The translations under genes and the position numbers were made by a program. A DNA stretch of 64,000 nucleotides, from positions 1-64,000 of the IMG/VR virus record IMGVR_UViG_3300044683_000172; one strand, 5' to 3'. Shown one piece after another: positions 9,024 through 44,453 of this stretch. This DNA is from a virus. Each line of letters begins with the position of its first letter. The stretch's first letter is position 1. The notes under the pieces are model-generated. The model was given only the letters and a program-made list of their open reading frames with translations, did no database searches and was not told the origin of the DNA.

Positions 9024-9263
9024 ATGACCCAGAAGCGATATGGCTGCCATAATCGGCCGCAATTGAAGACGTCCATGTTTGCGCAGGTCGGCTATCGCCA
9101 TGAGAAGCACATCTTGGATAACGGATGTGCGCGAACGGTCATGGTGCCGGTGTTCCGTCAGATCAGAACCAACTGGAAAGACGGCTGCAACTATGACCAA
9201 AAGGCAATCGATCCGCGTTGCCTTAACTGCCACCACCAGGAGAAAGACCATGCACATTCGTGA
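9024..9263 (+). CDS. hypothetical Cys/His-rich protein
   Basis: 79-aa ORF with AGAAAGGA leader. Several Cys/His residues (CHN...C...C...CLNCHH). Confidence 0.5.
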   Translation: MTQKRYGCHNRPQLKTSMFAQVGYRHEKHILDNGCARTVMVPVFRQIRTNWKDGCNYDQKAIDPRCLNCHHQEKDHAHS

Positions 9264-9909
9264 CTTCAGCGCAGCAAACAAAGCGCGCTCCGACAAGGAA
9301 TTCCCATCATGCGCCGATTGGCCGTTGGTCAATTGGATGAATGCCGCGCATGGCGAATTGGGCGAGGCGTCCAATGTTCTAAAGAAGATGCTGCGCGGCG
9401 ACTACGGCCCGAACGGCGAGCGCTCGCCCGAGTTTCTTGCGGCATTCGGCAAGGAGCTTCACGACGCTCTGGCGTACATCGATCTGGCTGCGACATGCGC
9501 CGGTCTGTCGCTGGAAACGGTGACCATCCAGAAGTGGAACGAAGTCAGCGAGCGCATCGGCTCGTCGATGCGCATCGACGCAGATGGGTTGTTCAACATC
9601 GAACAGAAGAAGCATTCCGCACCCGCTCTGGCCAGCGGATCGATCTGGCCTCGCCGTCTGAATCCGGATGAGGTGCGAATCGGTATGCTGGTGCGCTATG
9701 CCAACGGAGAAACGGCCCTGGCCAAGATCGCGTCGCCGCACGCCGGTGGATGGCACGCCCATCAATGCATGGGTGGAATGCTCTTCGTGAGCGCCAATGG
9801 GTATGGCGGCTATCTCTATGAGCCGACCCAACAGGACATCGATACGTGGAACGAGTGCAAGAAGTGGCGCACCGACTTCGGACGGCACGCCGACCCTTCT
9901 GGCGTTTAA
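9250..9909 (+). CDS. MazG-like all-alpha NTP pyrophosphohydrolase domain protein with extra C-terminal domain
   Basis: Internal ATG at 9250. WPLVNWMNAAHGELGEASNVLKKMLRGD...ELHDALAYIDLAA...KWNEVSERI fits the MazG-like pattern. Its stop overlaps the terL stop (TTAA, 9906-9909). Confidence 0.65.
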   Translation: MHIRDFSAANKARSDKEFPSCADWPLVNWMNAAHGELGEASNVLKKMLRGDYGPNGERSPEFLAAFGKELHDALAYIDLAATCAGLSLETVTIQKWNEVSERIGSSMRIDADGLFNIEQKKHSAPALASGSIWPRRLNPDEVRIGMLVRYANGETALAKIASPHAGGWHAHQCMGGMLFVSANGYGGYLYEPTQQDIDTWNECKKWRTDFGRHADPSGV

Positions 9910-11306
9910 AGATCGAAGAATCCTGCCGGGGCGCGCTTCGGCTTGATCAAGGACATGATTACGGCGTCGGCGATGTTTGGCGATTTGATTCCGCGCTTTT
10001 CTTTCATGTCCTTCTTCGATTCCACTTTGAACTTGCCCATCCCATCAATGTCCTTTCGGGGTGCGGCAAGTTCTTGGCACATCTTGTTGAGGGTCTTTTC
10101 GCCTACCATGGCGACAATCGCGTCTTTGTCGATTGAAACGAGTTCGTCAAATGGGTGATCGACACCCAAGACGACTGCTTCATAAGTCTTTCGGAACATC
10201 GATGCAACGCGATCCCACATCTGCGCCTTGATGTTCGAAAAGTGCTCTCTGTTGAGAATCTTGACGTGAGGCAATTCCATGTACACGCCGTCCGGCTCAA
10301 GAACGCTGCCGCCTGCGTTGAACGGGTTGTAGCTCAGAATGAATCCATCATTGTTCGAGTCATTCAACTCAGCAAACTTCGATCCAACGTGCGCTCCTAC
10401 GCCGATGGAGTCGAAGTTCACTTCTGCGCCATACACCTTTGCGGCATTGTAGACGCGCGTCGAAGATTTCAGAATTTCGTTCTCCAGCCCATCCCATTCT
10501 TCAACGTGATCGATGATGTTTCCGGTGCAACCGACCAAGGCATTCTTGTCGTCTCCGTCGTCTGCAACGTCGAAACCCATCACGCGCTTGCCTTCCTTTT
10601 TCCAGCCAAGCTTCTTGTGGGCGTCGATTGCGGCAAGTACATATTCAAGACTGATGACGCTCTTGTCGCCGCCAGTCTTTGGAATCCCTCCATAGACGTG
10701 TTCGGCGTTCTTCCGATCCTTGCGGTATGCGTCGGCAATGACCTTTAGCATCGTGTCGCTGAGGAATGGATTCAGTTGCCAATTGAACAGCCGCTGGATC
10801 GAGTCTTCCGGTGGATCAACAACGAAGTATTGATACACAAAGTCCATCATCTCATCTGGGTTCCAGATGATCCAAATCTGGGAGCCTTTCTTACGAATTG
10901 TCGGCTCGATGACGTTCCATTGGTCTTGTGTCAAGTAGTGAGCTTCTTCTAGCCAGAGGATATCGACGCCTTCAGTGGACTTGATTTCGCTCAGGTTACG
11001 AGCGATACCGTAGAACAGAAACGATGAGCCGGTGCGCTTGTTGACAATCGAGTTCTTCAGAATTTGGAAGTCATTGCGCCATGGGCTATCTTCGATCTTG
11101 TCTTTCAGAAGAGTGTACACCGATTCATCAATGCGGTTCTGGAACTGACGTGCGCAAAGAATCTTCAGTGTGAAGTTGGCCGCGAGATACACTGCAATGC
11201 CGGCAGCGTCGTGGGACTTGCCGGACGCACGTCCGCCATACAGGACTTTGTAGCGCTTGCGTGCGCGCCAGAAGTCCTTCAGATAAGGGTTGAGACGGTA
11301 AGCCAT
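9906..11306 (-). CDS. terL: terminase large subunit
   Basis: 466 aa. Walker A YGGRASGKSH near the N-terminus, WLEEAH Walker B-like motif and a C-terminal nuclease-type region. Resembles the PBSX-type terminase family. Confidence 0.92.
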   Translation of the reverse strand: MAYRLNPYLKDFWRARKRYKVLYGGRASGKSHDAAGIAVYLAANFTLKILCARQFQNRIDESVYTLLKDKIEDSPWRNDFQILKNSIVNKRTGSSFLFYGIARNLSEIKSTEGVDILWLEEAHYLTQDQWNVIEPTIRKKGSQIWIIWNPDEMMDFVYQYFVVDPPEDSIQRLFNWQLNPFLSDTMLKVIADAYRKDRKNAEHVYGGIPKTGGDKSVISLEYVLAAIDAHKKLGWKKEGKRVMGFDVADDGDDKNALVGCTGNIIDHVEEWDGLENEILKSSTRVYNAAKVYGAEVNFDSIGVGAHVGSKFAELNDSNNDGFILSYNPFNAGGSVLEPDGVYMELPHVKILNREHFSNIKAQMWDRVASMFRKTYEAVVLGVDHPFDELVSIDKDAIVAMVGEKTLNKMCQELAAPRKDIDGMGKFKVESKKDMKEKRGIKSPNIADAVIMSLIKPKRAPAGFFDL

Positions 11307-11511
11307 GCAGTGTCCTCAGATGTCATACGGCCACTATTGTATGGACTGAGGTTCACCAAAGATACGTCGCACGCAATCGAATATCAGAATTCCCGACCAA
11401 ATCATAGGGATATCACAAATATGTTGCCTGCTCGTCAGAAATGGAGCAATATTCACTCATGCGATGAACGTTGTCAATCAAACGGACTACGCAGAAGTTG
11501 AAGAAATTTCT

Positions 11512-11539
11512 TTGACTTGTTTGTTCGGTGCCCTATAAT
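11512..11539 (+). promoter_or_regulatory. sigma70-type promoter TTGACT-N16-TATAAT
   Basis: Near-consensus hexamers 50 nt upstream of the 11589 ATG. A CCGCTG-GGATG-CAGCGG hairpin follows immediately downstream. Confidence 0.6.
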
Positions 11540-11588
11540 CACTCTACCGCTGGGATGCAGCGGCAACCTAGAAAGACGAGAATTGATC

Positions 11589-12287: not shown

Positions 12288-12314
12288 GAACAAGAGCGGG
12301 GAGAAGTCGGCTTG

Positions 12315-12343
12315 TGGGCGGTCCGAGGGTCGCCCATCTTTTT
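12315..12343 (+). terminator. rho-independent terminator
   Basis: TGGGCG-N10-CGCCCA followed by TCTTTTT. Confidence 0.55.
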
Positions 12344-12364
12344 GAATTCAACCGGACACAAGAT

Positions 12365-12505
12365 ATGCCGAACAATCGAAAGTTTGACCGTCGCGCTGCC
12401 AATCGGGATCGCTTCGAAGATCGTGGCCGAAAGGCGAAGGCTTATTCGCGGACCGAACGCCGCGACTCGAAGCGTGCTGCTCGAAATTGGGCGCTGGAGG
12501 GTTGA
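12365..12505 (+). CDS. small basic hypothetical protein
   Basis: 46 aa (MPNNRKFDRRAANRDRFEDRGRKAK...). Its stop overlaps the next start. Confidence 0.4.
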   Translation: MPNNRKFDRRAANRDRFEDRGRKAKAYSRTERRDSKRAARNWALEG

Positions 12506-12507
12506 TC

Positions 12508-13016: not shown

Positions 13017-13025
13017 GAGAACAAG

Positions 13026-13914: not shown

Positions 13915-14016
13915 CACGTCCAACTCCTTCGCAAAATGATCATCCGCATCCTGGCAGCATCCGTTATCCTTGCTTTCTTCCTCTTTTGCTCGCCAATCTT
14001 GGCGTAAGGAGTCGTC

Positions 14017-15277: not shown

Positions 15278-15310
15278 CCCTTCACTTCAGTCGGATTTCT
15301 GATAGTTGTT

Positions 15311-15343: not shown

Positions 15344-15376
15344 TACGGTGATTGACCGTGCTAACCGAGAACTGAA

Positions 15377-26872: not shown

Positions 26873-27010
26873 ATGATCAAAAGAAATGGCACATCGATCA
26901 TCTTTGCTTTCTTCGCGCTGATGTCGATCTTTGGTGGTGAAAAGGGCGCTGCGCTCGCATTCTTCTTCTTTTGCGGATTGACTTTGGATTTGAAGAGAGG
27001 GTGTGAGTGA
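26873..27010 (+). CDS. small membrane protein (45 aa)
   Basis: ATG at 26873 after GGAG. MIKRNGTSIIFAFFALMSIFGGEKGAALAFFFFCGL. Confidence 0.4.
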   Translation: MIKRNGTSIIFAFFALMSIFGGEKGAALAFFFFCGLTLDLKRGCE

Positions 27011-31715: not shown

Positions 31716-31889
31716 ATGTACAAGGTTCTGGTCACGACGATTTATATCGGTTGCGGCTCGGGAGCAGCCGTCCATACGTCTACTATCGAATTCGATAGCC
31801 ACGCGCTCGCTACCGCTGCCGTTCGTATCATCAACGAAAACCACTGCGACAATAACTACAGCCAGAAAGCCCTGGCCCTCTTCCAATGA
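31716..31889 (+). CDS. hypothetical protein (57 aa)
   Basis: GAAGGAGG SD. MYKVLVTTIYIGCGSGAAVHTS... Stop overlaps the thyX start (ATGA). Confidence 0.4.
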   Translation: MYKVLVTTIYIGCGSGAAVHTSTIEFDSHALATAAVRIINENHCDNNYSQKALALFQ

Positions 31890-32716
31890 AAGTCACCCTC
31901 ATATCCCACACCCAAAACGCTCTGGAGCTTCTGGTTGATACGAAGCACACGCGTATGCGCGGCAAGACGGCCGATCAGATGACTGAAGCCGAACGATATG
32001 AGCACTTCCAGTACATGCTTGATACGATCCGCTCGCCGTTCGAGTTCGTTGATTACATCTTCCAGATCGAAGGCGTGTCCAAGAACTTCACGCATCAACT
32101 GGTTCGCACACGTACGGGCGCGTATCAGCAGGAAACCAGTCGCGCGCTGGAAATATCGGCCTTCGATACGATCAAGCCGAAGGCATTCGATGGAAACGGA
32201 CAGATAGATACGCCCTTGAATGAAGTTTGGGCGGACGCAATCGCCGATGCAGACGCCAACTACAAACAGTTGATTGCAATGGGCGCCGACCTTCAAGACG
32301 CCCGCGCCATCCTTCCGTCCAACATGGCCACCAAGATCATGGCCAAGTTTAATCTCCGGACGCTTTCTGATATGGCCAAGAACCGCCTGTGCGCACGTAC
32401 ACAAGGTGAGTATCAGGAAGTCTTTCGGGCAATGCGCGCGGCGGTGTTGGAAGTTCATCCCTGGTCCGACCCGCTCTTGCAGGTGGCGTGCGTTGCGACA
32501 GGGCAATGCGCCTTTCCGCGTTGGGGATCGAAGGTTATCGAGACGACGGCAAACGTACTGGGCCGCGATACCGTCATCGGTCAGAAGTATCAGTGTCCGC
32601 ACTATCGGCCTTGGATGGACCTGTCCGCTCAGAAGGAAGCATTGCGCGTATCCTTCTGGTCCAAGGAAGAAATCGCGCAAGCCAACCCCGTCGCCAAGAA
32701 TGGCGTTTCCATGTAA
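31886..32716 (+). CDS. thyX: ThyX-family (flavin-dependent thymidylate synthase-like) protein with variant signature motif
   Basis: FQIEGVSKNFTHQLVRTRTGAYQQETSRAL aligns with the ThyX RHRxxxxxxxS motif but reads RTR. Downstream ARAILPSNMATKIMAKFNLRTL...RLCARTQGEYQ fits the family. Confidence 0.8.
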   Translation: MKVTLISHTQNALELLVDTKHTRMRGKTADQMTEAERYEHFQYMLDTIRSPFEFVDYIFQIEGVSKNFTHQLVRTRTGAYQQETSRALEISAFDTIKPKAFDGNGQIDTPLNEVWADAIADADANYKQLIAMGADLQDARAILPSNMATKIMAKFNLRTLSDMAKNRLCARTQGEYQEVFRAMRAAVLEVHPWSDPLLQVACVATGQCAFPRWGSKVIETTANVLGRDTVIGQKYQCPHYRPWMDLSAQKEALRVSFWSKEEIAQANPVAKNGVSM

Positions 32717-32724
32717 GGAACTTC

Positions 32725-33858
32725 ATGAACATCATCAACGAAACTCCCAAGCGACCGCTCTACATCTTCGACCTGGATGGCACCGTTTCATCGGACGGCT
32801 GGCGCAAGCATCTTCTGCCGAAACACCCGGACGGCCAGCCGCGTGCGGAGAATGATGGAACGATTCCCCACGATGCGTACGACAAGTACCATTCCCTGCT
32901 GGGCGGCGATATGCCCATGTACGCTGGATTCAAGTGCCTGAAGCGTGCCATTGCTTTGGGCGCCTTCATCGTTTTCTTCACGGCACGGCCGACGTCTTAT
33001 CACGAAAAGACTGTTGAATGGCTGGAAAAGTTTCTCGGCAACTTCGATTACTGGCTTTACATGCGTGACGATGATGATCTTCGCGGCTCCGTTGAGCTCA
33101 AGTTGGATATGTTGAGCCGTCTCAAAGAAACGCTGAAGTTGAGCGCCCATTGGCACTTGGAAACCATCGCCATCTACGATGACCGAGCCGATGTTCTTGG
33201 AGCAATCGGCAGCACCGGCATCAACGCCTTCCGTATCACCGAGAACAATGAAGTTGTGATGGTCTCGTATCACAACGGACATAAATTCCCGAAGGAGATG
33301 TCTGCTCTTCACGAACAGATCAACGCCGGAGCCGCCGGGAATTGCGACCCCAACAAAAAACAAGACGCGAACGTCAAGGCCATCGAAGAAACGAAAACCA
33401 TTGGCGATATCTCGATCAAGACGCGAACCGAATTCGTCGCGCCTGCCAATCACGTCAGCGGATTCGTTGATAAACCCGAATCCCTGGCCAAAGCCATTGG
33501 AAATGCATGGGAGGCTGTGATGGGCCTTACCGGGAAGCCCGTTCGAGAAACGAGCGCGGCCGACCTGCTGGACGAAATGGCCGCGACGTTCCGAGAGCGC
33601 AACAAGGTGTACGGCAACAACGAGAAGCTGGTTGGCGACGTGATGTCCGCGATGTTTCCGAATGGCGTGACGCTCCGGACGGCAGCAGACTTTCGCATGT
33701 GGCACCTGTTTGAATTGAAGGTGGTGAAGTTGACACGTTTCGCTGTCTCCGGCCTGCAGCACCAAGACTCCATCCACGACGACGGCGTTTATAGCGCCAT
33801 GTGTGAACGTCTGGTTGGTACCCACAACATTCAAATCAACCAGGACGAATCGGAGTGA
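32725..33858 (+). CDS. fusion of a HAD-superfamily phosphatase (T4 Pnk-phosphatase-like) and a C-terminal all-alpha NTP-pyrophosphohydrolase-like domain
   Basis: LYIFDLDGTV (motif I), FFTARP (II), IYDDRADV (IV). The C-terminal FRERNKVYGNNE...WHLFELKVVKLTRF...HQDSIHDDGVYSAM resembles DUF1599/DUF6378-type domains. Confidence 0.7.
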   Translation: MNIINETPKRPLYIFDLDGTVSSDGWRKHLLPKHPDGQPRAENDGTIPHDAYDKYHSLLGGDMPMYAGFKCLKRAIALGAFIVFFTARPTSYHEKTVEWLEKFLGNFDYWLYMRDDDDLRGSVELKLDMLSRLKETLKLSAHWHLETIAIYDDRADVLGAIGSTGINAFRITENNEVVMVSYHNGHKFPKEMSALHEQINAGAAGNCDPNKKQDANVKAIEETKTIGDISIKTRTEFVAPANHVSGFVDKPESLAKAIGNAWEAVMGLTGKPVRETSAADLLDEMAATFRERNKVYGNNEKLVGDVMSAMFPNGVTLRTAADFRMWHLFELKVVKLTRFAVSGLQHQDSIHDDGVYSAMCERLVGTHNIQINQDESE

Positions 33859-33860
33859 CC

Positions 33861-34268
33861 ATGGAAGACAAATTCTCTGAAGACAATCCGAAATACGGAA
33901 TGCCACCGTTGAATGATTATGACCGCCGAAAGGAGTTGCAGGAAGCCGATTTGTTGCCTGCTTACAGTCACTTCTCCCAGCTGAATCCGGCCGAGCAAGA
34001 GCGGCTGACGCTTTTGTACGAAGAGGCCAGCGAAGTCATCAAGGAAGTGGCCAAGATTCAGCGACACGGCTTTGAGTCGCGCAATCCGGATAATCCGATG
34101 GCGAACACCAACCGGCAGAATTTGGCCATCGAAATCGGTCAACTTCAGTTTATCATCAACGTTCTGAAAGAGCGCGGCGATGTGGACGGAAAATTGGTTG
34201 ATCACGTCGCCAAGGAGCGCCATCTTTCCATCAACCGTTACCTCCACCACAACAAATTTCGAGCATGA
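33861..34268 (+). CDS. MazG-like NTP pyrophosphohydrolase
   Basis: LTLLYEEASEVIKEVAKIQRHG...NLAIEIGQLQFIINVL fits the EExxE/ExxD all-alpha NTP-PPase pattern. GTG at 33855 is an alternative start. Confidence 0.7.
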   Translation: MEDKFSEDNPKYGMPPLNDYDRRKELQEADLLPAYSHFSQLNPAEQERLTLLYEEASEVIKEVAKIQRHGFESRNPDNPMANTNRQNLAIEIGQLQFIINVLKERGDVDGKLVDHVAKERHLSINRYLHHNKFRA

Positions 34269-34984
34269 ACTCCTTTGTGAACAAAACGTCTGACAACCGA
34301 CTCGCCGGCAAATCCTTCATCGTCACCGGCGCTGGCGCTGGTCTGGGCGCGGCGATCTGCCGACGCCTGAATGAATCCGGAGCGCGTACGTACGGCATCG
34401 ACATCAAGTGGGGAAGCGATGTGCGTGACCCGGCCATCTGGGATGCTTACAAGGGATGGGATATCGACGGCCTGATCAACTGCGCTGGCATCAACGCCAA
34501 CGACTGGTTTGAGGATGTTAGCCCTTTCCAGTTGCAGAACGTTATGGAAGTGAACGCATTCTCGATGGTGTACGCCGTGCAAGGTTTGCTGCCGCAGCTG
34601 CACAAATCGTCGGGCGTCGTCGTCAACATCGTATCCAACGCCGCTAGTATGCCGATGACCTCGTCTCTGGCCTACAACATGTCCAAGGCGGCAGCGCTGA
34701 TGGCCACGAAGCAGATGGCGCACGAGCTTACGAAGAAATACGGGATCACCGTCTTCAGCGTCTCGCCGAACAAGCTGAAAGGCACCGAGATGTCCAAGCA
34801 GATCGAGGCCGACGTGCAACGCGTTCGCGGCTGGACGCCCGAATTCGCCGCCGACTATCAGGCCAAGTCGCTTATGCACGGGCTGGAGACGCCGCCGGAA
34901 ATGGTCGCTGAGGTCATCGTCAATGCTCTAGAAACCGGCGCGTGGAAGTATATGAGCGGGACTGACATTCCGGTCGGCAAGTAA
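34265..34984 (+). CDS. short-chain dehydrogenase/reductase (SDR)
   Basis: TGAGAGLGAAI cofactor motif, NCAG, and catalytic YNMSKAA. Confidence 0.9.
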   Translation: MNSFVNKTSDNRLAGKSFIVTGAGAGLGAAICRRLNESGARTYGIDIKWGSDVRDPAIWDAYKGWDIDGLINCAGINANDWFEDVSPFQLQNVMEVNAFSMVYAVQGLLPQLHKSSGVVVNIVSNAASMPMTSSLAYNMSKAAALMATKQMAHELTKKYGITVFSVSPNKLKGTEMSKQIEADVQRVRGWTPEFAADYQAKSLMHGLETPPEMVAEVIVNALETGAWKYMSGTDIPVGK

Positions 34985-35022
34985 GCGCGTATCATCAACT
35001 TTCTCAACTTCAAGGATTCACC

Positions 35023-35691
35023 ATGACCCAACTGAAATTCCGCATCGAACAAATCGCCCTGGCTCCTGCCAACACCGGCCGCGCCATCAAGCTTCTTTCC
35101 GACCTCGGCCTCACCGACTGGTTCAAGGACAACGTGGTGGCCAGCGGGCATGTGTACGGCGTTCCTGGCCAGAACAGCGCCCTTTTGCAGTTCAACTACC
35201 AAGCCGGCAACGGCAACGATCCGGCCGGCAAGCCGTTGGAGTTGGAAGTGCTGAAGTACGTGGACGGCAACAACTGGCTGAACTATCGCCCGGACAACAC
35301 CACGTCGCATCTGGGCATGCACGTCACGAGCGAAGAACTGTACGCCTTCCAGAAGTATTTCGAGCGCGAAGGCATCCCCGTTGCCCAGGCCGTTTGGACG
35401 GATGCGCACACAAATCCCGCCATCGCCGGCAAGCGTTTCTACAACTACGTCATCTTCGATACACACCAGATCATCGGCGTCGATCTGAAGTTCATCGTGC
35501 GCCATGACGTCACGCAAGTGGAGCAGAAAGAATCGCGCTTGCATCGCAATGGCGAAATCACGAGCAATGTCAAGGTCGAAATCGATACGAAGGACATCGA
35601 CCGTGCCGTCAAGCGCGCTCTGTCCGCCAAGAAGACTGTCGCCAAGCCTGCCAAGCCGGTCGGGCGCAAAACCGCTGTGCGCTCGAAATAA
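35023..35691 (+). CDS. VOC (glyoxalase/dioxygenase-fold)-like protein with basic tail
   Basis: IEQIALAPANTGRAIKLLSDLG..., LELEVLKY, SHLGMHVTSEEL are typical paired beta-alpha-beta-beta-beta module strings. Lys-rich C-terminus. Confidence 0.5.
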   Translation: MTQLKFRIEQIALAPANTGRAIKLLSDLGLTDWFKDNVVASGHVYGVPGQNSALLQFNYQAGNGNDPAGKPLELEVLKYVDGNNWLNYRPDNTTSHLGMHVTSEELYAFQKYFEREGIPVAQAVWTDAHTNPAIAGKRFYNYVIFDTHQIIGVDLKFIVRHDVTQVEQKESRLHRNGEITSNVKVEIDTKDIDRAVKRALSAKKTVAKPAKPVGRKTAVRSK

Positions 35692-35718
35692 GACGCCGAC
35701 CTTATAATCGGCCCGCAA

Positions 35719-35754
35719 GGCCGGGAAGCTGCAAGGCTTTCCGGCCTTTTACTT
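35719..35754 (+). terminator. rho-independent terminator
   Basis: GGCCGGGAAGC-TGCAAG-GCTTTCCGGCC (one G-U pair) followed by TTTTACTT. Confidence 0.7.
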
Positions 35755-35778
35755 AGAGCCAATAGAAAGGAGAATTTC

Positions 35779-36342
35779 ATGATATTCGCAGTAGCGGATA
35801 CGGAAACTACTGGCCTGCCATTCCATCGCGCGGCGCGACTCGATCAGCAGCCGCGCATCATCGAAATCGCAGGCGTCATAACGGACGGTGTTGATGTTCT
35901 GGACAAGTTCGAGTGCATCGTCAACCCCGGCGTGGCAATCGAACAGATCATCACCGACATCACCGGGTTGACGAATGCCGATTTGGCCGATAAGCCGGCA
36001 TTCAAGGACGTCATTCCGCAGGTTGCCGAGTTCTTCGGTAAAGCAGACGCCTGCATCTTCCACAACGCATCATTCGACCGATCCATGTTTGCCTATGATC
36101 TCCAACGCATCGGCTTGGAGTTGGACGCGATCAACTGGCCTGAGCTCACCATCTGTACCGTTGAAGAGACGATGCCGCGATATGGGCGCCGCATGAAGCT
36201 GGAAGAGCTTTACAACCTTCACTGCGGCGAATATGTCCAGAAGCACAGAGCATTGGACGACGTTTTGCTGCTTCATCAGGTCTGCATCAGGACAGGCGTT
36301 TACAGCGCATACAAGCAAACAGAAGAGATGAGGGCGCTATGA
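35779..36342 (+). CDS. dnaQ: DnaQ-like (DEDDh) 3'-5' exonuclease
   Basis: ExoI FAVADTETTGL, ExoII HNASFDRSMF, ExoIII HRALDDVLLL. Confidence 0.9.
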   Translation: MIFAVADTETTGLPFHRAARLDQQPRIIEIAGVITDGVDVLDKFECIVNPGVAIEQIITDITGLTNADLADKPAFKDVIPQVAEFFGKADACIFHNASFDRSMFAYDLQRIGLELDAINWPELTICTVEETMPRYGRRMKLEELYNLHCGEYVQKHRALDDVLLLHQVCIRTGVYSAYKQTEEMRAL

Positions 36343-36500
36343 ATTGTGACATCTGCAAAAAGCCGTTGAGCGAAGACCCGAAGAAGGACAATTACAACTG
36401 CGGCGGTACATGCATGCGCTGCATGGCGTCGTTTGATGATCCTGAGTGCAAGAAGGCCATCGCTGAAATCGACGGTATTGAGTTGGAGGATGAGCAATGA
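36339..36500 (+). CDS. small zinc-ribbon protein (53 aa) coupled between dnaQ and dnaE
   Basis: MNCDICKKPL...CGGTCMRCMASFDDPEC. ATGA overlaps at both ends. Confidence 0.45.
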   Translation: MNCDICKKPLSEDPKKDNYNCGGTCMRCMASFDDPECKKAIAEIDGIELEDEQ

Positions 36501-39349
36501 ATCTACCACAACTGCGAGTCCGCACCGGCTATTCTTTCCGCAATGCCTATGGGAGAATGGAAGAAGTCTTCGCGCGACTGAAAGAAATCGAATCTCCGTC
36601 AGCCGCTATCGTTGACTGGGGCACATGGGGGCATGTACGTTTCGAGAAGGAAGCGAAAAAGACCGGCATTAAGCCTATGTTTGGGATGGAAGTTCCGATC
36701 ATCCAAACCATGGAAGACGGCGAGAAATCTAAGTTCAAACCTGTCGCATGGATGCTGGCTGCCGATACGCGCGCCTTCTATCGCGGAACGACGAAGGCCT
36801 GGGCCGAACGAGGGTTGTCGCCGGCCGAGTTCGCAGCGCTGCCCGGTGTCGTACGCTTCGCGGGCGCAGCATCCCGGGTCTTGACCCCAGACCAGTACGA
36901 TTTCATCGACGTCAACCCGGCATCGATTTCCGAAGCGGCACGAGGCGTGTGGATCGCGCGCGAAACTGGCAAGCCTCTGGTCATCACCTGTTACAACGAC
37001 ATGCCGAAGCCGGATCACATGGACTTCGCGTATGCGTGGGAAGTTCGGGATTCGGTCGGCCATCGCTTCTTGGACGGCATCGATGAGCTTTGGAAGCGAC
37101 TTCAGCGCGTGATGTCGTGGAGCGAATTCCAAGCCGCAATCGACAACACCGTGGAAATTGCCGACAAGCTTGCTGGCAAGGAACTGCCCAAGGCACCTCT
37201 GATTCACCTGGAAGGCGATCTGGTTGCCCTGATCCGAGAAGGGCAGCAATCGCGCTTGCAGCGAGGTCACATCGCGGAATGGACCCAGGAATATGAGGAT
37301 CGTGTTCAAGAAGAGATCAAGCAAATTCAGCTGAAGAACTTCGACAGCTACTTTCTTGTTGTTGCTGATCTCGTCCGATTTGCAAAACAGCACATGCTGG
37401 TCGGACCCGCTCGCGGCTCGGCGGCAGGTTCATTGGTCTGCTATCTTCTCGGCATCACAGAAGTCGATCCTATTCCCCACGACCTTCTGTTCCAGCGGTT
37501 CATCGACATCAGCCGCGCTGACCTTCCGGATATCGACATCGACTTTGCCGACAACAAGCGTCATATGGTGTTCACGTACTTGCAAGAAAAGTACGGAACG
37601 CAGAACGTCGCCAAGCTTGGGAATATCAACACGCTGAAGGCCAACTCTGTGATGGCGCAAGTCGGCAAGCGTTTCGGCATTTCTTTCGGCGAAACTTCCC
37701 AAGTCAAAAATGCGCTCATTGAATACTCTTCTGGCGATGCTCGATACGGAAAAGGTTTGGAAGATACCTTCTCCACCACCGGACCCGGACAGGAATTCAC
37801 CCAGAAGCATCCGGACGCCGCGCGATGCATGGGCGACCTCGAAATCCATCCAAGTCATACAGGCGTACACGCTGCGGGCATCCTCGTCTGTAATGATCCA
37901 ATCAGCGATTACTGCACGGTCACCGAAGAAGGCGTGGCACAAATCGATAAGCCGGATTCTGAGTATCTGAACCTGCTGAAGATCGACGCGCTTGGCTTGC
38001 GTACTCTGGGCATCATCGATGATACGGGCGTCGTCACGGCCGAAGAACTCTACAGTCTGCGACTTGACGATCCCGCCGTGTTCGAAATCCTCAATGAGGA
38101 CAAGGTGAGTGGCATCTTCCAGTTTGAAGGGGATGCCGTTCGATCTGTGACGCGCTCTGTTAACGTGGATCGGTTCTCGAAAATCGACAACTTGACAGCT
38201 CTGGCGCGGCCCGGCCCGCTCGCGTCCGGTATGGCCCAAAAGTACATCGCCCGCGCCAACGGATCGGAGCCTGTTACGTACGATGTTCCGCAGCTGGAGA
38301 AGTACCTAAAGGACACGTACGGCGTTTTCCTTTACCAAGAGCAGATCATGTCCGTGGTGAAGGAAATTGGCTTGTTCGACTGGGTGAAGACTTCTGCTGT
38401 CCGAAAGGCCATGTCTGGTCGAAAGGGCGAAGAATACTTCAACCAGATGGGTGCCGACTTTGTTGCAGGCGCGACTTCGCAAGGAGTGCCGGAAGATCAG
38501 GCCAAGAAGATTTGGAACGAGATGGTGACGTTCGGCTCTTGGGGCTTCAATAAATCGCACTCGGTCTCATATGCCGTCGTGACGTATTGGACTTGCTGGC
38601 TCAAGCGTTATCATCCACTGGAGTTTGCCGCAGCCTGTCTGCGCGCGGCGAAAGACGATGATCAAGTAATCGCAATTCTTCGAGAATTGGCCAAGGAAGG
38701 AATCCATTACACGCCAATCGATCCGTCGTTCAGCGATATGAATTGGAAGGTGGCCGATGGCCGACTGATCGGCGGCATCATGAATGCCAAGGGTTTTGGA
38801 CCGGCCAAGGCGATGAAGTACATCCAGGATCGCGAGAAATGGAAGAGGCTTCGCGACTTGGGGCCGCTGACGAAGAAGGATACGGCGCTGTACCTGAAGC
38901 ACGTCGAATCGCTCGCCAAGGCTGAGGTCCAATACTCCGACTTGAATGAAGCGCACACCAAGTGGGGCCACTTCTATCGGAACCCGGAACTGGCCGGCGT
39001 TACGTCCGGCAACCCTATCGTCAACATGAAGTCGGTGAAGGACAAAGACGATGGTCTGATCATCGCCAAGCTGACCAAGAAGGTTTTGGCCGACGAGAAC
39101 GAAGCCATTCGGATCAAAAAGCGCGGCGGGAAAGTCATGACCGGCCAGACGCAGTTCATCGACTTGATGATGGTGGACGATTCCGCCGACTCGCCGATGC
39201 GTTTCCGTATCCGCCCTAACAAGTTCCTTGACCTAGGCAAGCCCATCGCGGAAACCGCTCCGATCAATTCTTGGTTTCTGATCAAAGCATGGAAGATCGA
39301 AGGAATTGATATGTTCATCGTTAAGAACATAAAGAGGATCGACCAATGA
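36497..39349 (+). CDS. dnaE: DNA polymerase III alpha subunit (DnaE-type replicative polymerase)
   Basis: 950 aa. GPARGSAAGSLVCYLLGITEVDP, PDIDIDF, and fingers/beta-binding region FNKSHSVSYA. The N-terminal PHP motif is degenerate (LRVRTGYS). Confidence 0.95.
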   Translation: MNLPQLRVRTGYSFRNAYGRMEEVFARLKEIESPSAAIVDWGTWGHVRFEKEAKKTGIKPMFGMEVPIIQTMEDGEKSKFKPVAWMLAADTRAFYRGTTKAWAERGLSPAEFAALPGVVRFAGAASRVLTPDQYDFIDVNPASISEAARGVWIARETGKPLVITCYNDMPKPDHMDFAYAWEVRDSVGHRFLDGIDELWKRLQRVMSWSEFQAAIDNTVEIADKLAGKELPKAPLIHLEGDLVALIREGQQSRLQRGHIAEWTQEYEDRVQEEIKQIQLKNFDSYFLVVADLVRFAKQHMLVGPARGSAAGSLVCYLLGITEVDPIPHDLLFQRFIDISRADLPDIDIDFADNKRHMVFTYLQEKYGTQNVAKLGNINTLKANSVMAQVGKRFGISFGETSQVKNALIEYSSGDARYGKGLEDTFSTTGPGQEFTQKHPDAARCMGDLEIHPSHTGVHAAGILVCNDPISDYCTVTEEGVAQIDKPDSEYLNLLKIDALGLRTLGIIDDTGVVTAEELYSLRLDDPAVFEILNEDKVSGIFQFEGDAVRSVTRSVNVDRFSKIDNLTALARPGPLASGMAQKYIARANGSEPVTYDVPQLEKYLKDTYGVFLYQEQIMSVVKEIGLFDWVKTSAVRKAMSGRKGEEYFNQMGADFVAGATSQGVPEDQAKKIWNEMVTFGSWGFNKSHSVSYAVVTYWTCWLKRYHPLEFAAACLRAAKDDDQVIAILRELAKEGIHYTPIDPSFSDMNWKVADGRLIGGIMNAKGFGPAKAMKYIQDREKWKRLRDLGPLTKKDTALYLKHVESLAKAEVQYSDLNEAHTKWGHFYRNPELAGVTSGNPIVNMKSVKDKDDGLIIAKLTKKVLADENEAIRIKKRGGKVMTGQTQFIDLMMVDDSADSPMRFRIRPNKFLDLGKPIAETAPINSWFLIKAWKIEGIDMFIVKNIKRIDQ

Positions 39350-39438
39350 AGTTCATTGATTTCATCATGTTGTGCGTGGCTCTTCTGTTGGCCGCGCACG
39401 TCGCCATTCAACAAAGCCTAGGAGTTATGTGGGCATGA
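39346..39438 (+). CDS. possible 30-aa hydrophobic peptide
   Basis: MKFIDFIMLCVALLLAAHVAIQQSLGVMWA. ATGA overlaps with the dnaE stop and the next start. Confidence 0.3.
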   Translation: MKFIDFIMLCVALLLAAHVAIQQSLGVMWA

Positions 39439-39878
39439 GCCGACTGAAAGAGCAACGCGAATGGGATGTCTTCAGCAAGCATGCTGCAGGCCGTCTTCTT
39501 TTGCATCGGGTGGAAAACTCGGTGCGCGAATCGATGCCGGATGTGATCGGCGAAAACCGCGATGGGAAGGCATTCTGGCTGGAACTCAAGGCACTATATG
39601 AATGGCCGAAGCGCGCGACTACGAAGCCATTGCGCGGCGCATTCGAAAAGGGCCAGATTCCATTCGGCAAAGAGTGGATCATGTGGGGCGGCAATGCGTA
39701 CGTGCTGTTGCGAGTCGGACAAGATGAATGGTTTTTGCTCTCTTGCAAGCCGCGAATCATCGGAATGACTTGGCCGGAGAACAGCATCGATCTGGCAGAT
39801 ATGACGCGAGATCAAATCAACTCATCGGCCGTTGCAATCGGACTTGAACCAATCATCGAATTCTTGGAGCAACTATGA
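39435..39878 (+). CDS. VRR-NUC / PD-(D/E)xK nuclease
   Basis: Internal ATG. MPDVIGENRDGKAFWLELK gives the D...ExK motif. Confidence 0.65.
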   Translation: MSRLKEQREWDVFSKHAAGRLLLHRVENSVRESMPDVIGENRDGKAFWLELKALYEWPKRATTKPLRGAFEKGQIPFGKEWIMWGGNAYVLLRVGQDEWFLLSCKPRIIGMTWPENSIDLADMTRDQINSSAVAIGLEPIIEFLEQL

Positions 39879-41341
39879 AGACAAAAGGAATGATCCACCA
39901 GTTGATCGGCCTCAATCGAATGGAAGGAAAGCGCAACTTCGCGCTTCTGATGGAGCAGGGGACAGGCAAGACGTGGGTCAGCATGGCTGATGCCGAGCGC
40001 TGCTTCATCGCCGACAAGATCGATGCGCTGCTGGTCTTCGCTCCGAATGGCGTGCACATCAACTGGACGCGCCGCGAGATTCCGACGCACATGGAAGTCC
40101 CGACGGTCACGTATGCATGGAAAGGCAAACCGACCAGCAAGCGTGCGATTGCCGCTCACGAAAAGCTGTATGCCACTCATTTCGCGCAGCCGACTCTTCG
40201 CGTGTTCACAATCAACTTCGAAGCCGTCAACACCGCTGCTGGCTATGAAGCCGTGGAGCGGTTCCTTGGCACGTTCCGAGTCATGTGCGTGGTCGATGAA
40301 TCGACGCGCATCAAGAATCCGTCGGCGAAGCGGACAAAGAAGATCGTGAAGCTGGGGCGAATGGCGACTGCTCGACGAATCCTCAGCGGCACGCCTCTGA
40401 CCAAAGCACCAACGGACCTTTACAGTCAATTCGACTTCCTGAAGTCAGGGTTGCTCGGGACCACATCTTATCGCGCTTTCGTTGCGGAGCACGCAGTGCT
40501 GCTCACTGAAGACGATCCGAAGATGAAGGCCATCATGCGCAAGCTTGCTGGAAAGACTTTCGGCATGCCTCAAGTTGTCGCAGAGGACGAGAACGGAAAC
40601 AAGCAGTGGCGAAATCTTGAACGTCTTCGCGACATGATTGCGCCCCATTCGTATCGTGTCAGAAAAGAGGATTGCTTGGACCTTCCGCCGAAGGTCTACA
40701 AGCGCGTTTACTTTGAGTTGGACGCAAAGCAGCGCCGAGTCTATGATTTGCTGAAGGAAGACTACCACTACGTCCACTTGGATTCGGAAGATATGTCATT
40801 CCAGGCAATCGCCGCGCGGACAAAGTTGAAGCAAGTGGTGTCTGGATTCATCAACATCCACGGCGAGCCGTTCCTGATCGACCCGAAGGAAAACCCGCGA
40901 ATGTCGGTGTTCAAGGAGTTGATCGAAGGGATCGAAGGACAGTTCATCGTCTGGGCGATGTTTGAAGAAGAAATCAAACAGATCATGGACGCCCTTTCAG
41001 ATGCCGGGATCAGCGCGGCTGCATACTATGGAGCCACGCCGAAAGAAGAGCGCGAACAGATCATCGACGACTTCCAGAGCGGTCGGTTGACCGTATTTGT
41101 CGGCCACGCTGCAGCGGCAGGGATCGGCATTACGCTGACGGCCGCGCAGACTGCCATTTATTATTCGTGCTCATTCGACAATGAGCTTCGGCTCCAGTCG
41201 GAAGATCGATGCCACCGGATCGGGACGAAGGGCACCGTGGTCTATTACGACATCATCGCAGAAGACACGATTGATGAAGATGTCGTGCGGTCTTTGGCCA
41301 TCAAATCGCATCTGGCCGATGTGGTGATCGACGGTAAGTGA
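39875..41341 (+). CDS. SNF2-family helicase/ATPase
   Basis: MEQGTGKT (motif I), VVDESTRIKN (II), LSGTPLTKAP (III), and C-terminal QSEDRCHRIG. Confidence 0.9.
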   Translation: MKTKGMIHQLIGLNRMEGKRNFALLMEQGTGKTWVSMADAERCFIADKIDALLVFAPNGVHINWTRREIPTHMEVPTVTYAWKGKPTSKRAIAAHEKLYATHFAQPTLRVFTINFEAVNTAAGYEAVERFLGTFRVMCVVDESTRIKNPSAKRTKKIVKLGRMATARRILSGTPLTKAPTDLYSQFDFLKSGLLGTTSYRAFVAEHAVLLTEDDPKMKAIMRKLAGKTFGMPQVVAEDENGNKQWRNLERLRDMIAPHSYRVRKEDCLDLPPKVYKRVYFELDAKQRRVYDLLKEDYHYVHLDSEDMSFQAIAARTKLKQVVSGFINIHGEPFLIDPKENPRMSVFKELIEGIEGQFIVWAMFEEEIKQIMDALSDAGISAAAYYGATPKEEREQIIDDFQSGRLTVFVGHAAAAGIGITLTAAQTAIYYSCSFDNELRLQSEDRCHRIGTKGTVVYYDIIAEDTIDEDVVRSLAIKSHLADVVIDGK

Positions 41342-41405
41342 TGGTTGCCGGGGCCATGCGACTCCGGCAAAATAGCGCCAACTAGAACCACGAGAAAGGA
41401 ACCAA

Positions 41406-41738
41406 ATGGCACGAGTATTCATCCCACAGGTAGTCACGCGATTCAATCCCGTCTCGAAGACAAAAGAGCCGGTTTTTGACTTCAGCGCCGCCGCGCAGCA
41501 TGGGACTCTGATCAACGTGCTGAGTGAAGAGGACAATCCCCTGTTTCTGGCCCATCTTGCTCCAAAGATTCGAAAGGCTTTGGATGATTTCAAGGAAGAG
41601 GATCGGTTGCTGGCCGTTGGCGACCCCTCTGTGATCGCCATTTGCAGCGGCATCATCCTGCGGCGACAACGAGTCCTCAACATGCTTAAGTGGGATCGCA
41701 AGCTGCAAGTTTACATCAATGTGGAGGTAAGACCATGA
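41406..41738 (+). CDS. hypothetical protein
   Basis: 110-aa ORF, GAAAGGAA SD. Confidence 0.55.
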   Translation: MARVFIPQVVTRFNPVSKTKEPVFDFSAAAQHGTLINVLSEEDNPLFLAHLAPKIRKALDDFKEEDRLLAVGDPSVIAICSGIILRRQRVLNMLKWDRKLQVYINVEVRP

Positions 41739-42376
41739 GTGACGAACCGATTCAACAGAATCTTGTTACAGACGGATTTGACGATCCGGAAAGCAACGGC
41801 AGCATTCCGACATCCGCCTACTTCGAAGACACAGGTCCGGTCAGCAATGAAGAGCCTGCGACTTTGGAGGCTCTGAGCTTGATGGCCCGGAAGAGTGGCG
41901 AGTTGGAGGCCGAAATCATGGCGCTGGAAGTTCAACTGGCCGAGAAGACGGACCAACTGAACATCATCAAGCGCAAGAGCATGCCCGACATCATGGAGCG
42001 TCTGGGCTTTGAATCGTTCAAGATGGAAGATGGCCGAACCATTGAGATCGAGAAGAAGATCAATGCATCCATCAGCGCCGAGAACAAGCCGCTGGCATTC
42101 GCTTGGCTCCGCGAGCACAACTGTGACGGCATCATCAAGATGAAGGTCGGCACCGACTTCGGCAAGGGCGAAAGCGACTTGGCTGAAAAGGCAATCAAAG
42201 CGCTGCGCGAAGCCGGTTTCGATCCGAACGTTGACGAGAACGTTCACCCGGCCACGCTCAAGGCATTCGTCCGCGAGCAACTGGAAGAAGGCACCGATAT
42301 TCCAATCGATGTCTTCGGCATCTTCGAATTCAAAGAGGCAAAAATCAAATTGCCTCGGACATCGAAGCGCAAGTAA
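41735..42376 (+). CDS. hypothetical protein (coiled-coil; possibly Gp157-like)
   Basis: ATGA overlap. Acidic N-terminus, coiled coil, AFAWLREHNCDGIIKMKV segment. Weak family resemblance only. Confidence 0.55.
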   Translation: MSDEPIQQNLVTDGFDDPESNGSIPTSAYFEDTGPVSNEEPATLEALSLMARKSGELEAEIMALEVQLAEKTDQLNIIKRKSMPDIMERLGFESFKMEDGRTIEIEKKINASISAENKPLAFAWLREHNCDGIIKMKVGTDFGKGESDLAEKAIKALREAGFDPNVDENVHPATLKAFVREQLEEGTDIPIDVFGIFEFKEAKIKLPRTSKRK

Positions 42377-42432
42377 TCTAGCGCTTCCTCAACCGAGTAG
42401 TTTCAATTCAGTTTCAACAAGGAGCATCAAAT

Positions 42433-43287
42433 ATGGCAAAGAAAGAAGAGAATGCAGTGGTGGAAGTGAAGGCTGGCGCGCTGGCCACGGTTCCGGAATT
42501 CATGGACGTCGCCGACTTCGGCGCGGGCTTCGAAGGCACCGACAAGGACTCCTATGCGATCCCGTTCCTTCAAGTCCTGCAGAAGATGTCGCCGCTGGTC
42601 GATGAAGACAGTCCCAAGTACATCGAAGGCGCCAAGGCCGGCATGTTCTTCAATACCGTCACTGGTCGCCTGTACGATGGCAAAAACGGCCTGACCGTCA
42701 TCCCGTGCGCCTACAAGCGTTCCTTCATCCAGTGGGGTGCACGCGAGGCTGGCGGCGGCTTCAAGGGCGAGTTCACGCCTGAGCACGCCGAGCAGATGGT
42801 GGCTGAAGGCAAGTGGCTGCAGATCGAGAACCGCATCTACGTTCCGGACGAAAACGGCAAGGTCGATCCGAAGAAGCAGGACTACGTTGCCGACACGCGA
42901 TCCCACTTCATCGTCGGCATCGATCCCGAAACCAACGAAACGTTCCGCGCGATCCTCTCGCTGGCTTCCTCGCAGATCAAGGCCAGCCGCAACCTGATGA
43001 CGTCGCTGAGCCAGAAGAAAGTCACGCTGCCGGACGGCTCGAAGCGCACGCCGCCGACGTTTGCCAACCTGGTCCAACTGACGACCGTCGGCCAGACGAA
43101 CGATCAGGGCTCCTGGTCCGGCGTCGTCTTCAAACTGGACGGCACGATCACTGACAAGGCGCTGTTCGAAGAGGCCAAGGACTTCCACAAGTCCATCGCG
43201 GCCGGCGAAGTGAAGGTGGACTACAGCAAGGCGGCAGACGATGGCACCAGCGCCAGCGACAAGCCGCAAGAAGCCGAAGGGTTCTAA
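42433..43287 (+). CDS. hypothetical protein; possible ssDNA-binding/recombination protein
   Basis: 284 aa. Acidic C-terminal tail ending EAEGF, like SSB-type interaction tails. Lies in the replication/recombination neighbourhood. Function not established. Confidence 0.5.
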   Translation: MAKKEENAVVEVKAGALATVPEFMDVADFGAGFEGTDKDSYAIPFLQVLQKMSPLVDEDSPKYIEGAKAGMFFNTVTGRLYDGKNGLTVIPCAYKRSFIQWGAREAGGGFKGEFTPEHAEQMVAEGKWLQIENRIYVPDENGKVDPKKQDYVADTRSHFIVGIDPETNETFRAILSLASSQIKASRNLMTSLSQKKVTLPDGSKRTPPTFANLVQLTTVGQTNDQGSWSGVVFKLDGTITDKALFEEAKDFHKSIAAGEVKVDYSKAADDGTSASDKPQEAEGF

Positions 43288-43311
43288 GCAGAGCCAGCAC
43301 AAAAGGGTAAG

Positions 43312-43345
43312 ATAAGGGCCGGGCGATCCGGCCCTTATTCTACTC
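43312..43345 (+). terminator. hairpin terminator (weak T-run)
   Basis: ATAAGGGCCGG-GCGAT-CCGGCCCTTAT. Confidence 0.45.
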
Positions 43346-43356
43346 AGGAGCAAATC

Positions 43357-43680
43357 ATGTTTAACAAAGGCATCTTGGCGGCAATTGGCGCTGCACTTCT
43401 GGCTGTTTTGTACGCAATCAAGCGGCTGTTCGATTCGAAGCAGGAAAAGGATCAACGCGCGGAAGTTGCGAATGCCGCCAATTCGGTTGCAGAAAAGGCA
43501 AATGGCAATGCAAAAACGGCATCCGAAATCGCCAATATGACGGCCGAAGATATGGCCAAGGAGTTGTCCAATGTACAAGTCCAAACTGATGCTGATCGTG
43601 GCGCCGTTGCTTCTGGCGGCCTGCGCGACGGTTCCGACGCCCTCAACGCCGCAATTGATCGCGCCAACGGTCGCGTGTAA
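43357..43680 (+). CDS. i-spanin (Rz-like)
   Basis: N-terminal TM MFNKGILAAIGAALLAVLYAI plus a charged helical periplasmic part. Its 3' end contains the start of an out-of-frame lipoprotein gene. Confidence 0.55.
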   Translation: MFNKGILAAIGAALLAVLYAIKRLFDSKQEKDQRAEVANAANSVAEKANGNAKTASEIANMTAEDMAKELSNVQVQTDADRGAVASGGLRDGSDALNAAIDRANGRV

Positions 43681-43879
43681 CGAGAACGCGGCGCCCGCTC
43701 TGCTCCCCAAGTATCCGACCGCCCCCGAGGTCGAAGACGCCATTTCGCTGAAGGCTTACAGCAAGCAACAGCAGGCGTGGGCAGTGGAAGCAATCGGCGC
43801 CTATTCGCAGGAGCGTGCAAAGCGTCGCGCAACTGCGGAATGCCTCAACAAACTCCGCCAACGAGGAATTATCAACTAA
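43571..43879 (+). CDS. o-spanin (Rz1-like outer-membrane lipoprotein)
   Basis: Lipobox LLLAAC, Pro-rich mature N-terminus. Starts inside the i-spanin gene in another frame (overlapped architecture). AGGAG SD. Confidence 0.6.
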   Translation: MYKSKLMLIVAPLLLAACATVPTPSTPQLIAPTVACNENAAPALLPKYPTAPEVEDAISLKAYSKQQQAWAVEAIGAYSQERAKRRATAECLNKLRQRGIIN

Positions 43880-43889
43880 GGAGAAGTGA

Positions 43890-44453
43890 ATGACTGAATA
43901 CAACATTTCCATCCAAGACCTTTTCGCTGCCGTCGTTGCCTGGGCGAAAGCGCGCAATCTCATCGCAGGCAGCGATCCGAAGACGCAAACGCTCAAGACC
44001 GTCAGCGAATTCGCCGAGATCGGCGCTGGCATCTTCAAAGAAGACATCGACGAAATCAAGGACGGATTGGGCGACACCCTTGTCACCGTGATCATCGTCG
44101 CGGCGCAGCTTGGCAAGGACGCATATGATGCATTCGAAACGAAAATCAGCCTGGAAAGCGAGCTTGGCGAAGATTTCGAAATGTACAACTACGAACTGGC
44201 AAGCGCAACGCTGGGGCTGATGGCCGACAACGTCATCAAGGGGCAAGTCAACGACTACATGATCAATCTCGCCGTGTTCATCCAGCTGCTTGCCGATATC
44301 GCCGAATCCCGCAGTTGCAGCCTTCACGACTGTCTGGCCGCTGCCTACGATGAGATCAAGGACCGCAAGGGCGTGATGTACCACGGCGCCTTCATCAAGG
44401 ATTCGGACCCGCGCTATGCAGGCGCCTGCGCCGAACTTGGCCTGGAGGCTTAA
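43890..44453 (+). CDS. MazG-like NTP pyrophosphohydrolase
   Basis: TQTLKTVSEFAEIGAGIFKEDIDEIKDGLGDTLVTVIIVAAQLG and C-terminal AYDEIKDRKG fit the MazG/dimeric dUTPase-like pattern. Confidence 0.7.
   Translation: MTEYNISIQDLFAAVVAWAKARNLIAGSDPKTQTLKTVSEFAEIGAGIFKEDIDEIKDGLGDTLVTVIIVAAQLGKDAYDAFETKISLESELGEDFEMYNYELASATLGLMADNVIKGQVNDYMINLAVFIQLLADIAESRSCSLHDCLAAAYDEIKDRKGVMYHGAFIKDSDPRYAGACAELGLEA

Follow-up and report, generated by a model that had tools for sequence, protein, structure and literature searches.

The DNA under study, hereafter the window, comprises positions 1 to 64,000 of the IMG/VR record IMGVR_UViG_3300044683_000172 (64 of 68.9 kb) and stems from an uncultured myophage of the PB1/BcepF1/Carpasina/Pluto supergroup, where we place it because its gene order is that of Xanthomonas phage Carpasina (NC_047962), Pseudomonas phage E217 (a PB1-like Pbunavirus), Burkholderia phage Karil-Mokiny-1 and Luteibacter phage vB_LflM-Pluto (ON529861). 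Here we describe four genes, termed c1 to c4, in which a sequence-only reading had recognised four all-alpha nucleoside triphosphate (NTP) pyrophosphohydrolase-like domains of the MazG type, together with a portal protein to which it had ascribed a pyrophosphatase-like domain. Profile matches bear out the MazG assignment for the N-terminal half of c1 and for c2 and c3, whereas the C-terminus of c4 has no MazG match and appears to be an unrelated four-helix domain, such that one of the four candidates, rather than most of them, is reassigned to another helical family.

MazG-type candidates and the portal protein

All four open reading frames (ORFs) are present at the coordinates collected in Table 1, each preceded by a plausible Shine-Dalgarno-like site. 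A profile of the c1 family, built from three sequences, matches RS21-C6/DCTPP1 (2oie/7mu5) with E=2.6e-6 and the MazG-related structure 2q73 with E=0.003, where the DCTPP1 match extends over ~80 residues (aa ~16-100 of c1) and brings the GExGE and ExxD motifs into register. Human DCTPP1 is also reached by phmmer (E=0.002), PHROG 229 is matched with E=8e-4, and tblastn aligns the N-terminal half at 45% identity (E=5e-14) with the annotated standalone MazG of Planktothrix/Synechococcus phages; no match to c1 is found in Pfam. Residues E36, E39, E69 and D72 are invariant across the three homologues and align with the acidic motifs of DCTPP1, and the AF2 model of full-length c1, likewise based on three sequences (mean pLDDT 50), predicts four helices in this half of the protein. 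These matches place the N-terminal half of c1 within the all-alpha (MazG-type) NTP pyrophosphohydrolase superfamily.

The C-terminal domain of c1 finds nothing in Pfam or PHROG, but tblastn aligns aa 117-219 at 38% identity with Carpasina 1810-2106, and this module corresponds to the start of a hypothetical gene that, in Carpasina, XcP1, FoX6/7 and MATE2, occupies the same locus and is likewise convergent with the terminase gene. The MazG fusion itself is absent from Pluto, Carpasina and E217, the Carpasina locus holding the C-terminal part only. Homologues of the whole fusion number only three among 5.8e9 proteins, and one of them (P0002, 41% identity) occupies the same locus, adjoining a terminase, in contig L004. 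In evolutionary terms, c1 is a MazG domain fused to a lineage-specific gene beside the terminase, and this fusion is the sole rare item of the set.

The small protein c2 matches PHROG 4856 ("nucleoside triphosphate pyrophosphohydrolase") with E=1.3e-14. On its own it scores 13.2 bits against Pfam MazG, below the cutoff of 22, and a two-sequence alignment returns chance matches only from the Protein Data Bank (PDB). With an alignment of 70 family members the PDB search reaches the MazG-like 5ie9 (E=0.008) across both acidic motifs, and 36 of the 70 sequences match Pfam MazG (best 2.3e-6). Nine match PRA-PH, which likewise belongs to the all-alpha NTP pyrophosphohydrolases. We therefore assign c2 to the same superfamily at the level of family profiles. 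Within c2, E54, E55, E58 and E91 are conserved and the last metal-ligand position is occupied by Gln94 rather than Asp. Since Asp (35), His (20), Gln (10), Asn (3) and Glu (2) all occur at this position across the 70 members, Gln94 would be a family trait and not a lesion; the idea that it inactivates c2 was set aside, as Gln and His recur there. An exhaustive HMMER search retrieves 1848 representative relatives of c2, and 55 phage records carry one. Most members of the family span ~100 aa and lack the N-terminal extension of ~35 residues seen in c2 (aa 1-35; 33861-33965).

The c2 gene starts 3 nucleotides (nt) past the c4 stop codon, and its own stop codon overlaps the start of the following gene (ATGA). 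No gene occupies this position in the relatives inspected (Carpasina, E217, Pluto and contigs L005-L010); in Pluto, a c2-like copy (40% identical) is located in the early region. The c2 protein belongs to a family of ~100-aa proteins that is widespread and whose genes sit at different places in different relatives.

For c3, the match to PHROG 1992 ("MazG-like pyrophosphatase") reaches E=1.1e-52, and five more PHROG families labelled MazG or nucleotide pyrophosphohydrolase are also hit. The Pfam MazG score falls just below the cutoff (E=4.3e-4; 20.9 bits versus 22) and NCBIfam returns weak MazG matches and nothing further, whereas a profile of four orthologues matches the MazG-related structures 2yxh (E=0.0057) and 1vmg (E=0.014) over the ExxE...D(G)xGD core. 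Residues E40, E43, D58 and D62 as well as a KDRKG motif are invariant in the four orthologues, and E40-x-x-E43 and D58-G-x-G-D62 align with the ExxE and E(E)xGD motifs of 2yxh, 1vmg and E. coli MazG, the acidic motif being a variant form in which the first Glu is replaced by Asp. These matches make c3 another member of the superfamily. Acidic metal-binding residues are retained in both c1 and c3.

Syntenic orthologues of c3 are Carpasina gp36, E217 gp51, Pluto_00920 and the MazG-like protein of Karil-Mokiny-1, whose genes always directly precede the ligase gene or take up the corresponding place. The window protein is 42-45% identical to E217 gp51 and the Karil-Mokiny-1 protein, and comparison of the window with Pluto, Carpasina and E217 gives 32-42% for the c3 orthologues and 25-35% for those of c4. 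Relatives of c3 are carried by 1423 phage records; a search for related c3 loci among viral contigs found none. From synteny and homology, c3 and c4 are vertically inherited core genes of the supergroup.

The copies do not behave as paralogues when aligned pairwise. All-against-all BLASTP of the candidates yields nothing better than E=0.26, and the hidden Markov model (HMM) of each MazG family matches its own gene only, among 694 window ORFs; c1, c2 and c3 therefore represent three different subfamilies that were separately acquired. The sole profile similarity, and a weak one, is between c1 and c2, for which hhalign gives an in-register alignment at 43% probability, compared with 2% and 0.4% for the other two MazG pairs. 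The GC content at third codon positions (GC3) of c1-c4 is 0.63-0.75 and the GC content of the window is 0.54. Recent horizontal acquisition inferred from composition was dropped, as neither GC nor GC3 of the four genes deviates clearly.

The pyrophosphatase on the portal is real, although it represents an already known fusion and is not all-alpha. The portal ORF matches Phage_portal_3 (E=2.9e-90; 303 bits, cutoff 33.8) and, at its C-terminus, the Pfam family InPase (PF18823; E=1.2e-48; 164.8 bits, cutoff 26.8), a type I inorganic pyrophosphatase with an OB fold that has been described as a portal fusion in Burkholderia phage BcepF1 (Iyer et al. 2017, PMC5512222). The roles proposed for phage InPases are clearance of pyrophosphate (PPi) or attack on infection-induced nucleotides (PMC5512222).

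The sequence-only reading had called the set as a whole unusual, which, judged against the relatives inspected, applies to the rare c1 fusion but not to the core genes c3 and c4. Pluto, moreover, possesses c2-, c3- and c4-like genes as well as a portal homologue annotated "inorganic pyrophosphatase", as in the window. With the fourth copy unrelated and the greater part of the set shared by descent with known relatives, the set is only mildly unusual.

Table 1. Coordinates of the candidate genes, their domains and the associated cassette and portal genes in the window
Feature	Position	Strand	Remarks
Portal with C-terminal type I inorganic pyrophosphatase (InPase) domain	3766..6300	-	InPase nt 3865-4254, aa 683-812
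c1 fusion protein, 219 aa	9250..9909	+	ORF identical to JGI gene call; convergent with large terminase gene 9906-11306 (-)
c1 N-terminal MazG-type (DCTPP1/RS21-C6-like) domain, by homology	9250..9579	+	PDB profile, tblastn, PHROG 229
c1 C-terminal domain	9598..9906	+	tblastn homology to gene start at same locus in Carpasina-like phages
ThyX, flavin-dependent thymidylate synthase, cassette gene 1	31886..32716	+	Pfam Thy1 E=3.5e-31; TIGR02170 82.7 bits (cutoff 87.9)
c4, 377 aa: HAD phosphatase, linker and helical domain	32725..33858	+	PHROG 4889 E=5e-55, full length
c4 HAD phosphatase domain, PNKP phosphatase type, FDLDGTV	32743..33270	+	HAD_PNKP, PHROG 415
c4 C-terminal four-helix domain, DUF6378/Nmad1-like	33541..33855	+	ERNxxYG ... 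FPxG ... HLFEL..VKLxRF ... HxDSIHD..VY
c2, 135 aa, motif EE..E ... E..Q	33861..34268	+	Between c4 and SDR gene; PHROG 4856
Short-chain dehydrogenase/reductase (SDR), last cassette gene	34265..34984	+	Pfam adh_short E=1.5e-30
c3, MazG-like pyrophosphatase, 187 aa	43890..44453	+	Between spanin-like ORFs and DNA ligase; PHROG 1992

The helical domain of c4 and the ThyX cassette

The N-terminal ~180 residues of c4 contain FDLDGTV at aa 14-20, corresponding to the DxDxT nucleophile motif, and match PHROG 415 (E=9e-22) as well as Pfam HAD_PNKP, the latter slightly below the cutoff (E=4.9e-5; 23.9 bits versus 27.6), with a weak PDB match to Pnkp1. Orthologues are Carpasina gp48, E217 gp59 and Pluto_00800, and at least 80% of c4 is matched in 312 phage records. 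In these relatives the gene is labelled "polynucleotide kinase/phosphorylase", an annotation that appears overstated since the family scans of c4 return no kinase family and its sequence contains no Walker A motif.

The C-terminal ~95 residues of c4 are modelled with confidence (AF2 pLDDT 90.8) and have 75 close homologues, most of them standalone hypothetical proteins of ~100 aa and some fused to HAD_PNKP. Their alignment reveals invariant or near-invariant residues (R20, N21, Y24, F39, P40, G42, H55, K63, R66, H74, D76, S77, H79, D80 and Y84) and no ExxE/ExxD acidic pair. There is no MazG match in Pfam or the PDB, where the profile search gives chance matches only, and hhalign against the c1, c2 and c3 families stays at or below 0.2% probability. 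The C-terminal domain of c4 was rejected as a MazG, having neither the acidic motif nor any profile or fold match to MazG.

Instead, the domain appears closest to DUF6378 and to Nmad1, "Nucleotide modification associated domain 1". The c4 domain itself scores 13.2 bits against DUF6378 (PF19905; cutoff 27.1, E=0.11), and weak matches to DUF6378 (E<=1) are seen in 32 of 46 family members, the best at 3.9e-5. Foldseek against the BFVD viral models places the same domain in other HAD fusions nearest (E 1e-11 to 1e-5), followed by DUF6378 and Nmad1 proteins (E 0.01-0.4, probability 0.85-1.0). Sequence and predicted structure thus both suggest an unrelated four-helix domain with DUF6378/Nmad1 as its nearest neighbours. 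Literature on DUF6378/DUF1599 yielded no functional study, the sole lead being a remark on a ThyX-Nmad1 operon.

The genomic setting of this domain is strongly conserved. The order ThyX, HAD_PNKP, helical domain, SDR, small ORF, DnaQ and PolIII alpha is kept in every relative examined, and the cassette, which occupies 31886-34984 of the window, is also found at L001 39410-41963, L002 1817-3946, L013 21068-23930 and in contigs L005-L010. The helical domain is fused to HAD in the window, Carpasina, E217 and Pluto and is encoded by a separate gene in contigs L005-L010, and the SDR gene directly follows it in L005-L010, Carpasina and Pluto. None of Pluto, Carpasina and E217 has a c2 gene within the cassette, as the window does. 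Across contigs, the helical domain is 59-67% identical, compared with ~30% for the HAD domain. In the ThyX of the window, aa ~70-86 read THQLVRTRTGAYQQETSR, i.e. R(T/S)R..(A/S)....T.R, and the alignment shows that Carpasina, E217, Pluto and metagenomic relatives keep this variant. The canonical ThyX motif is RHR..S....S.R.

We regard this conserved ThyX-HAD-helical-SDR cassette as a more interesting question than the number of MazG copies. Correcting the fourth copy exposes a conserved, uncharacterised helical domain that is always found beside a kinase-less PNKP-type phosphatase next to ThyX, in a gene that is routinely misannotated as polynucleotide kinase in hundreds of PB1-like therapeutic phages. 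It is conceivable, but quite unlikely on present evidence, that the whole PB1/Carpasina/Pluto supergroup possesses an uncharacterised pyrimidine-nucleotide pathway, encoded by the cassette and expanded here by the in-frame-coupled MazG c2, which might for instance make or salvage a non-standard nucleotide related to thymidylate. If so, the helical domain would not be an inert appendage but a new subunit with a catalytic or specificity role, and c1 and c2 would tune the deoxynucleoside triphosphates (dNTPs) that enter the pathway or are kept out of DNA.

At the nucleotide level, megablast of 32000-45000 finds matches confined to a portion of the gene for DNA polymerase III alpha (73-75% identity), in Xanthomonas phages Carpasina and FoX6/7, Xylella phage MATE2 and Serratia phage MyoSmar. 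Two ORFs between the portal and c1, at 6409-7242 (+) and 7573-8337 (+), are not on the strand that encodes the structural genes; a DUF6011 domain ends one of them and the other contains DUF2786 plus DUF7168, the DUF2786/DUF7168 gene being syntenic in contig L004. Amid the plus-strand region, two primase/helicase-type genes at 21588-23348 (-) and 23904-25007 (-) (phrog_4630, phrog_4861) are on the minus strand. A homing-endonuclease-like ORF at 27007-27852 (+) (phrog_314, E=1.6e-48) lies directly upstream of a Dda-like helicase gene at 27892-29040. Three replication-region ORFs, at 25166-26305, 35023-35691 and 46231-46926 (all +; 379, 222 and 231 aa), have no PHROG match; the former two have no Pfam match either, and 46231-46926 was scanned against PHROGs only.

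Candidate roles in nucleotide metabolism

We consider it fairly likely that the three independently derived MazG-type enzymes, carried alongside the HAD protein with its non-MazG helical domain and the portal InPase, act mainly by shaping the dNTP pool. In such a scheme, c1, c2 and c3 would differ in the (d)NTPs they accept, each cutting its substrates between the alpha and beta phosphates to yield (d)NMP and PPi. Probably translationally coupled within the cassette, c2 would turn dUTP (and/or dCTP) into the monophosphate, probably supplying dUMP that feeds ThyX, and the resulting low dUTP would keep uracil out of phage DNA. The DCTPP1-like c1 would most likely act on dCTP or on non-canonical dNTPs, with its fusion partner suggesting lineage-specific localisation or regulation, whereas c3 may be the ancestral, generic house-cleaning enzyme of the replication/ligase module. 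A pyrophosphatase, for instance the portal InPase, could clear the PPi that the MazG enzymes and the polymerase release. Within the ThyX cassette, the helical domain of c4 would be no pyrophosphohydrolase but would obligately partner the HAD phosphatase. Several nucleotide specificities among c1-c3, as the sequence-only reading had envisaged, are plausible.

Several points weigh against the dNTP-pool scheme. In half of the c2 family the position of Gln94 is held by the metal-ligand Asp, and the activity of c2 could therefore be altered. The c2-like gene of Pluto sits outside the ThyX cassette, such that the linkage between c2 and ThyX is not conserved. In favour of the scheme, trimeric dUTPase, dCMP deaminase and Nudix motifs are found by regular expression in none of the window ORFs of at least 50 aa, and family scans of ~40 further window ORFs return no dUTPase, dCMP deaminase or Nudix protein, but the absence of a dUTPase is then drawn from motif patterns and partial family scans over 64 of 68.9 kb. 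For the C-terminal half of c1, the AF2 model is unusable (pLDDT <50). Substrate specificity, moreover, is not readable from the sequences, and the dUTP and dCTP assignments are suggested by context and nearest relatives.

Alternatively, one or more MazG-type enzymes together with an injected portal InPase could serve counter-defence by destroying host alarmones or immune signalling nucleotides, which we consider unlikely. E. coli MazG reportedly lowers (p)ppGpp, but MazG-type chemistry cleaves the linear triphosphate and not cyclic phosphodiesters. While c1 and c2 are accessory and patchily distributed, as anti-defence genes often are, and c1 lies outside the replication module, c2 is embedded in the thymidylate cassette. 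No match to an anti-defence family turned up, although no search was aimed at such families. For the portal domain, Iyer et al. propose infection-induced nucleotides as possible targets of phage InPases (PMC5512222), whereas the alarmone reading is weakened because a cyanophage MazG does not hydrolyse magic-spot nucleotides (PMC6850273), although it may still apply to c1.

It appears very unlikely that the phage has non-canonical DNA, with the MazG enzymes keeping out one of the canonical dNTPs and the ThyX-HAD-helical-SDR cassette producing a modified pyrimidine nucleotide. Exclusion of a canonical dNTP is known from the dCTPase gp56 of T4 and from MazZ/DatZ of S-2L, but a ThyA-type hydroxymethylase, glycosyl- or aminotransferase, PurZ and DatZ are all missing from the ORFs scanned. 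The tight conservation of the cassette, with its helical domain so much less diverged than the HAD domain, the altered ThyX signature of the clade and the presence of Nmad1 among the predicted structural neighbours of the c4 helical domain would fit such a pathway; however, c1 and c2 are not conserved along with the cassette, which is moreover shared with PB1-like phages, whose DNA is cleaved by ordinary restriction enzymes. A precedent is offered by MazZ, which feeds PurZ (PMC8342488). As for the C-terminal domain of c4, an origin as an extremely diverged member of the MazG superfamily, which would restore the literal count of four, is highly improbable: in the model it is a four-helix bundle of MazG-like size, with conserved charged residues on helices 1, 3 and 4 and an association with nucleotide-metabolism genes, yet neither the motif nor the profile comparisons described above connect it to MazG.

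Genes for MazG-type enzymes rank among the most frequent auxiliary genes in phages, yet substrates are known for few of these enzymes. With three MazG subfamilies unrelated to one another in a single 69-kb genome, this phage would constitute a convenient natural panel for studying whether the subfamilies differ in specificity.

Relation to known systems

The overall genome plan, with ThyX, the HAD/helical "polynucleotide kinase", (SDR), DnaQ, PolIII alpha, helicases, the MazG-like gene and ligase, is shared between the window and Pluto, Carpasina and E217. The portal has the same domain order as the portal-InPase fusion of BcepF1, a phage of a related lineage, with no difference detected (PMC5512222). 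The relation of c1 to DCTPP1/RS21-C6 (XTP3TPA; PDB 2oie, 7mu5) is at the profile level only, and c1 differs by an additional C-terminal domain of ~100 aa. The c2 family aligns through both acidic motifs with small bacterial MazG-like proteins of the YpjD type (PDB 5ie9, 2gta), but has its own signature, KxxRHG ... TNR ... YLHHQ. Similarly, the helical domain of c4 shares weak sequence matches and BFVD structural neighbourhood with phage proteins of the DUF6378 (PF19905) and Nmad1/DUF1599 (PF07659) families, whereas its sub-threshold score and tight conservation suggest a subfamily of its own, which is always adjacent or fused to HAD_PNKP.

With respect to function, the role suggested for c2 has parallels that are analogies only. 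The dCTPase gp56 of T4, a member of the MazG superfamily, converts a dNTP into the dNMP for a neighbouring nucleotide-converting enzyme. In S-2L, the MazG-type enzyme MazZ, encoded upstream of PurZ, likewise supplies a dNMP from the dNTP to the adjacent enzyme (PMC8342488). The dUTPase-ThyX-Nmad1 operon remarked on in Asgard viruses (bioRxiv 10.1101/2021.07.29.453957) parallels the ThyX-(helical domain)-MazG arrangement of the window in the shared association with ThyX.

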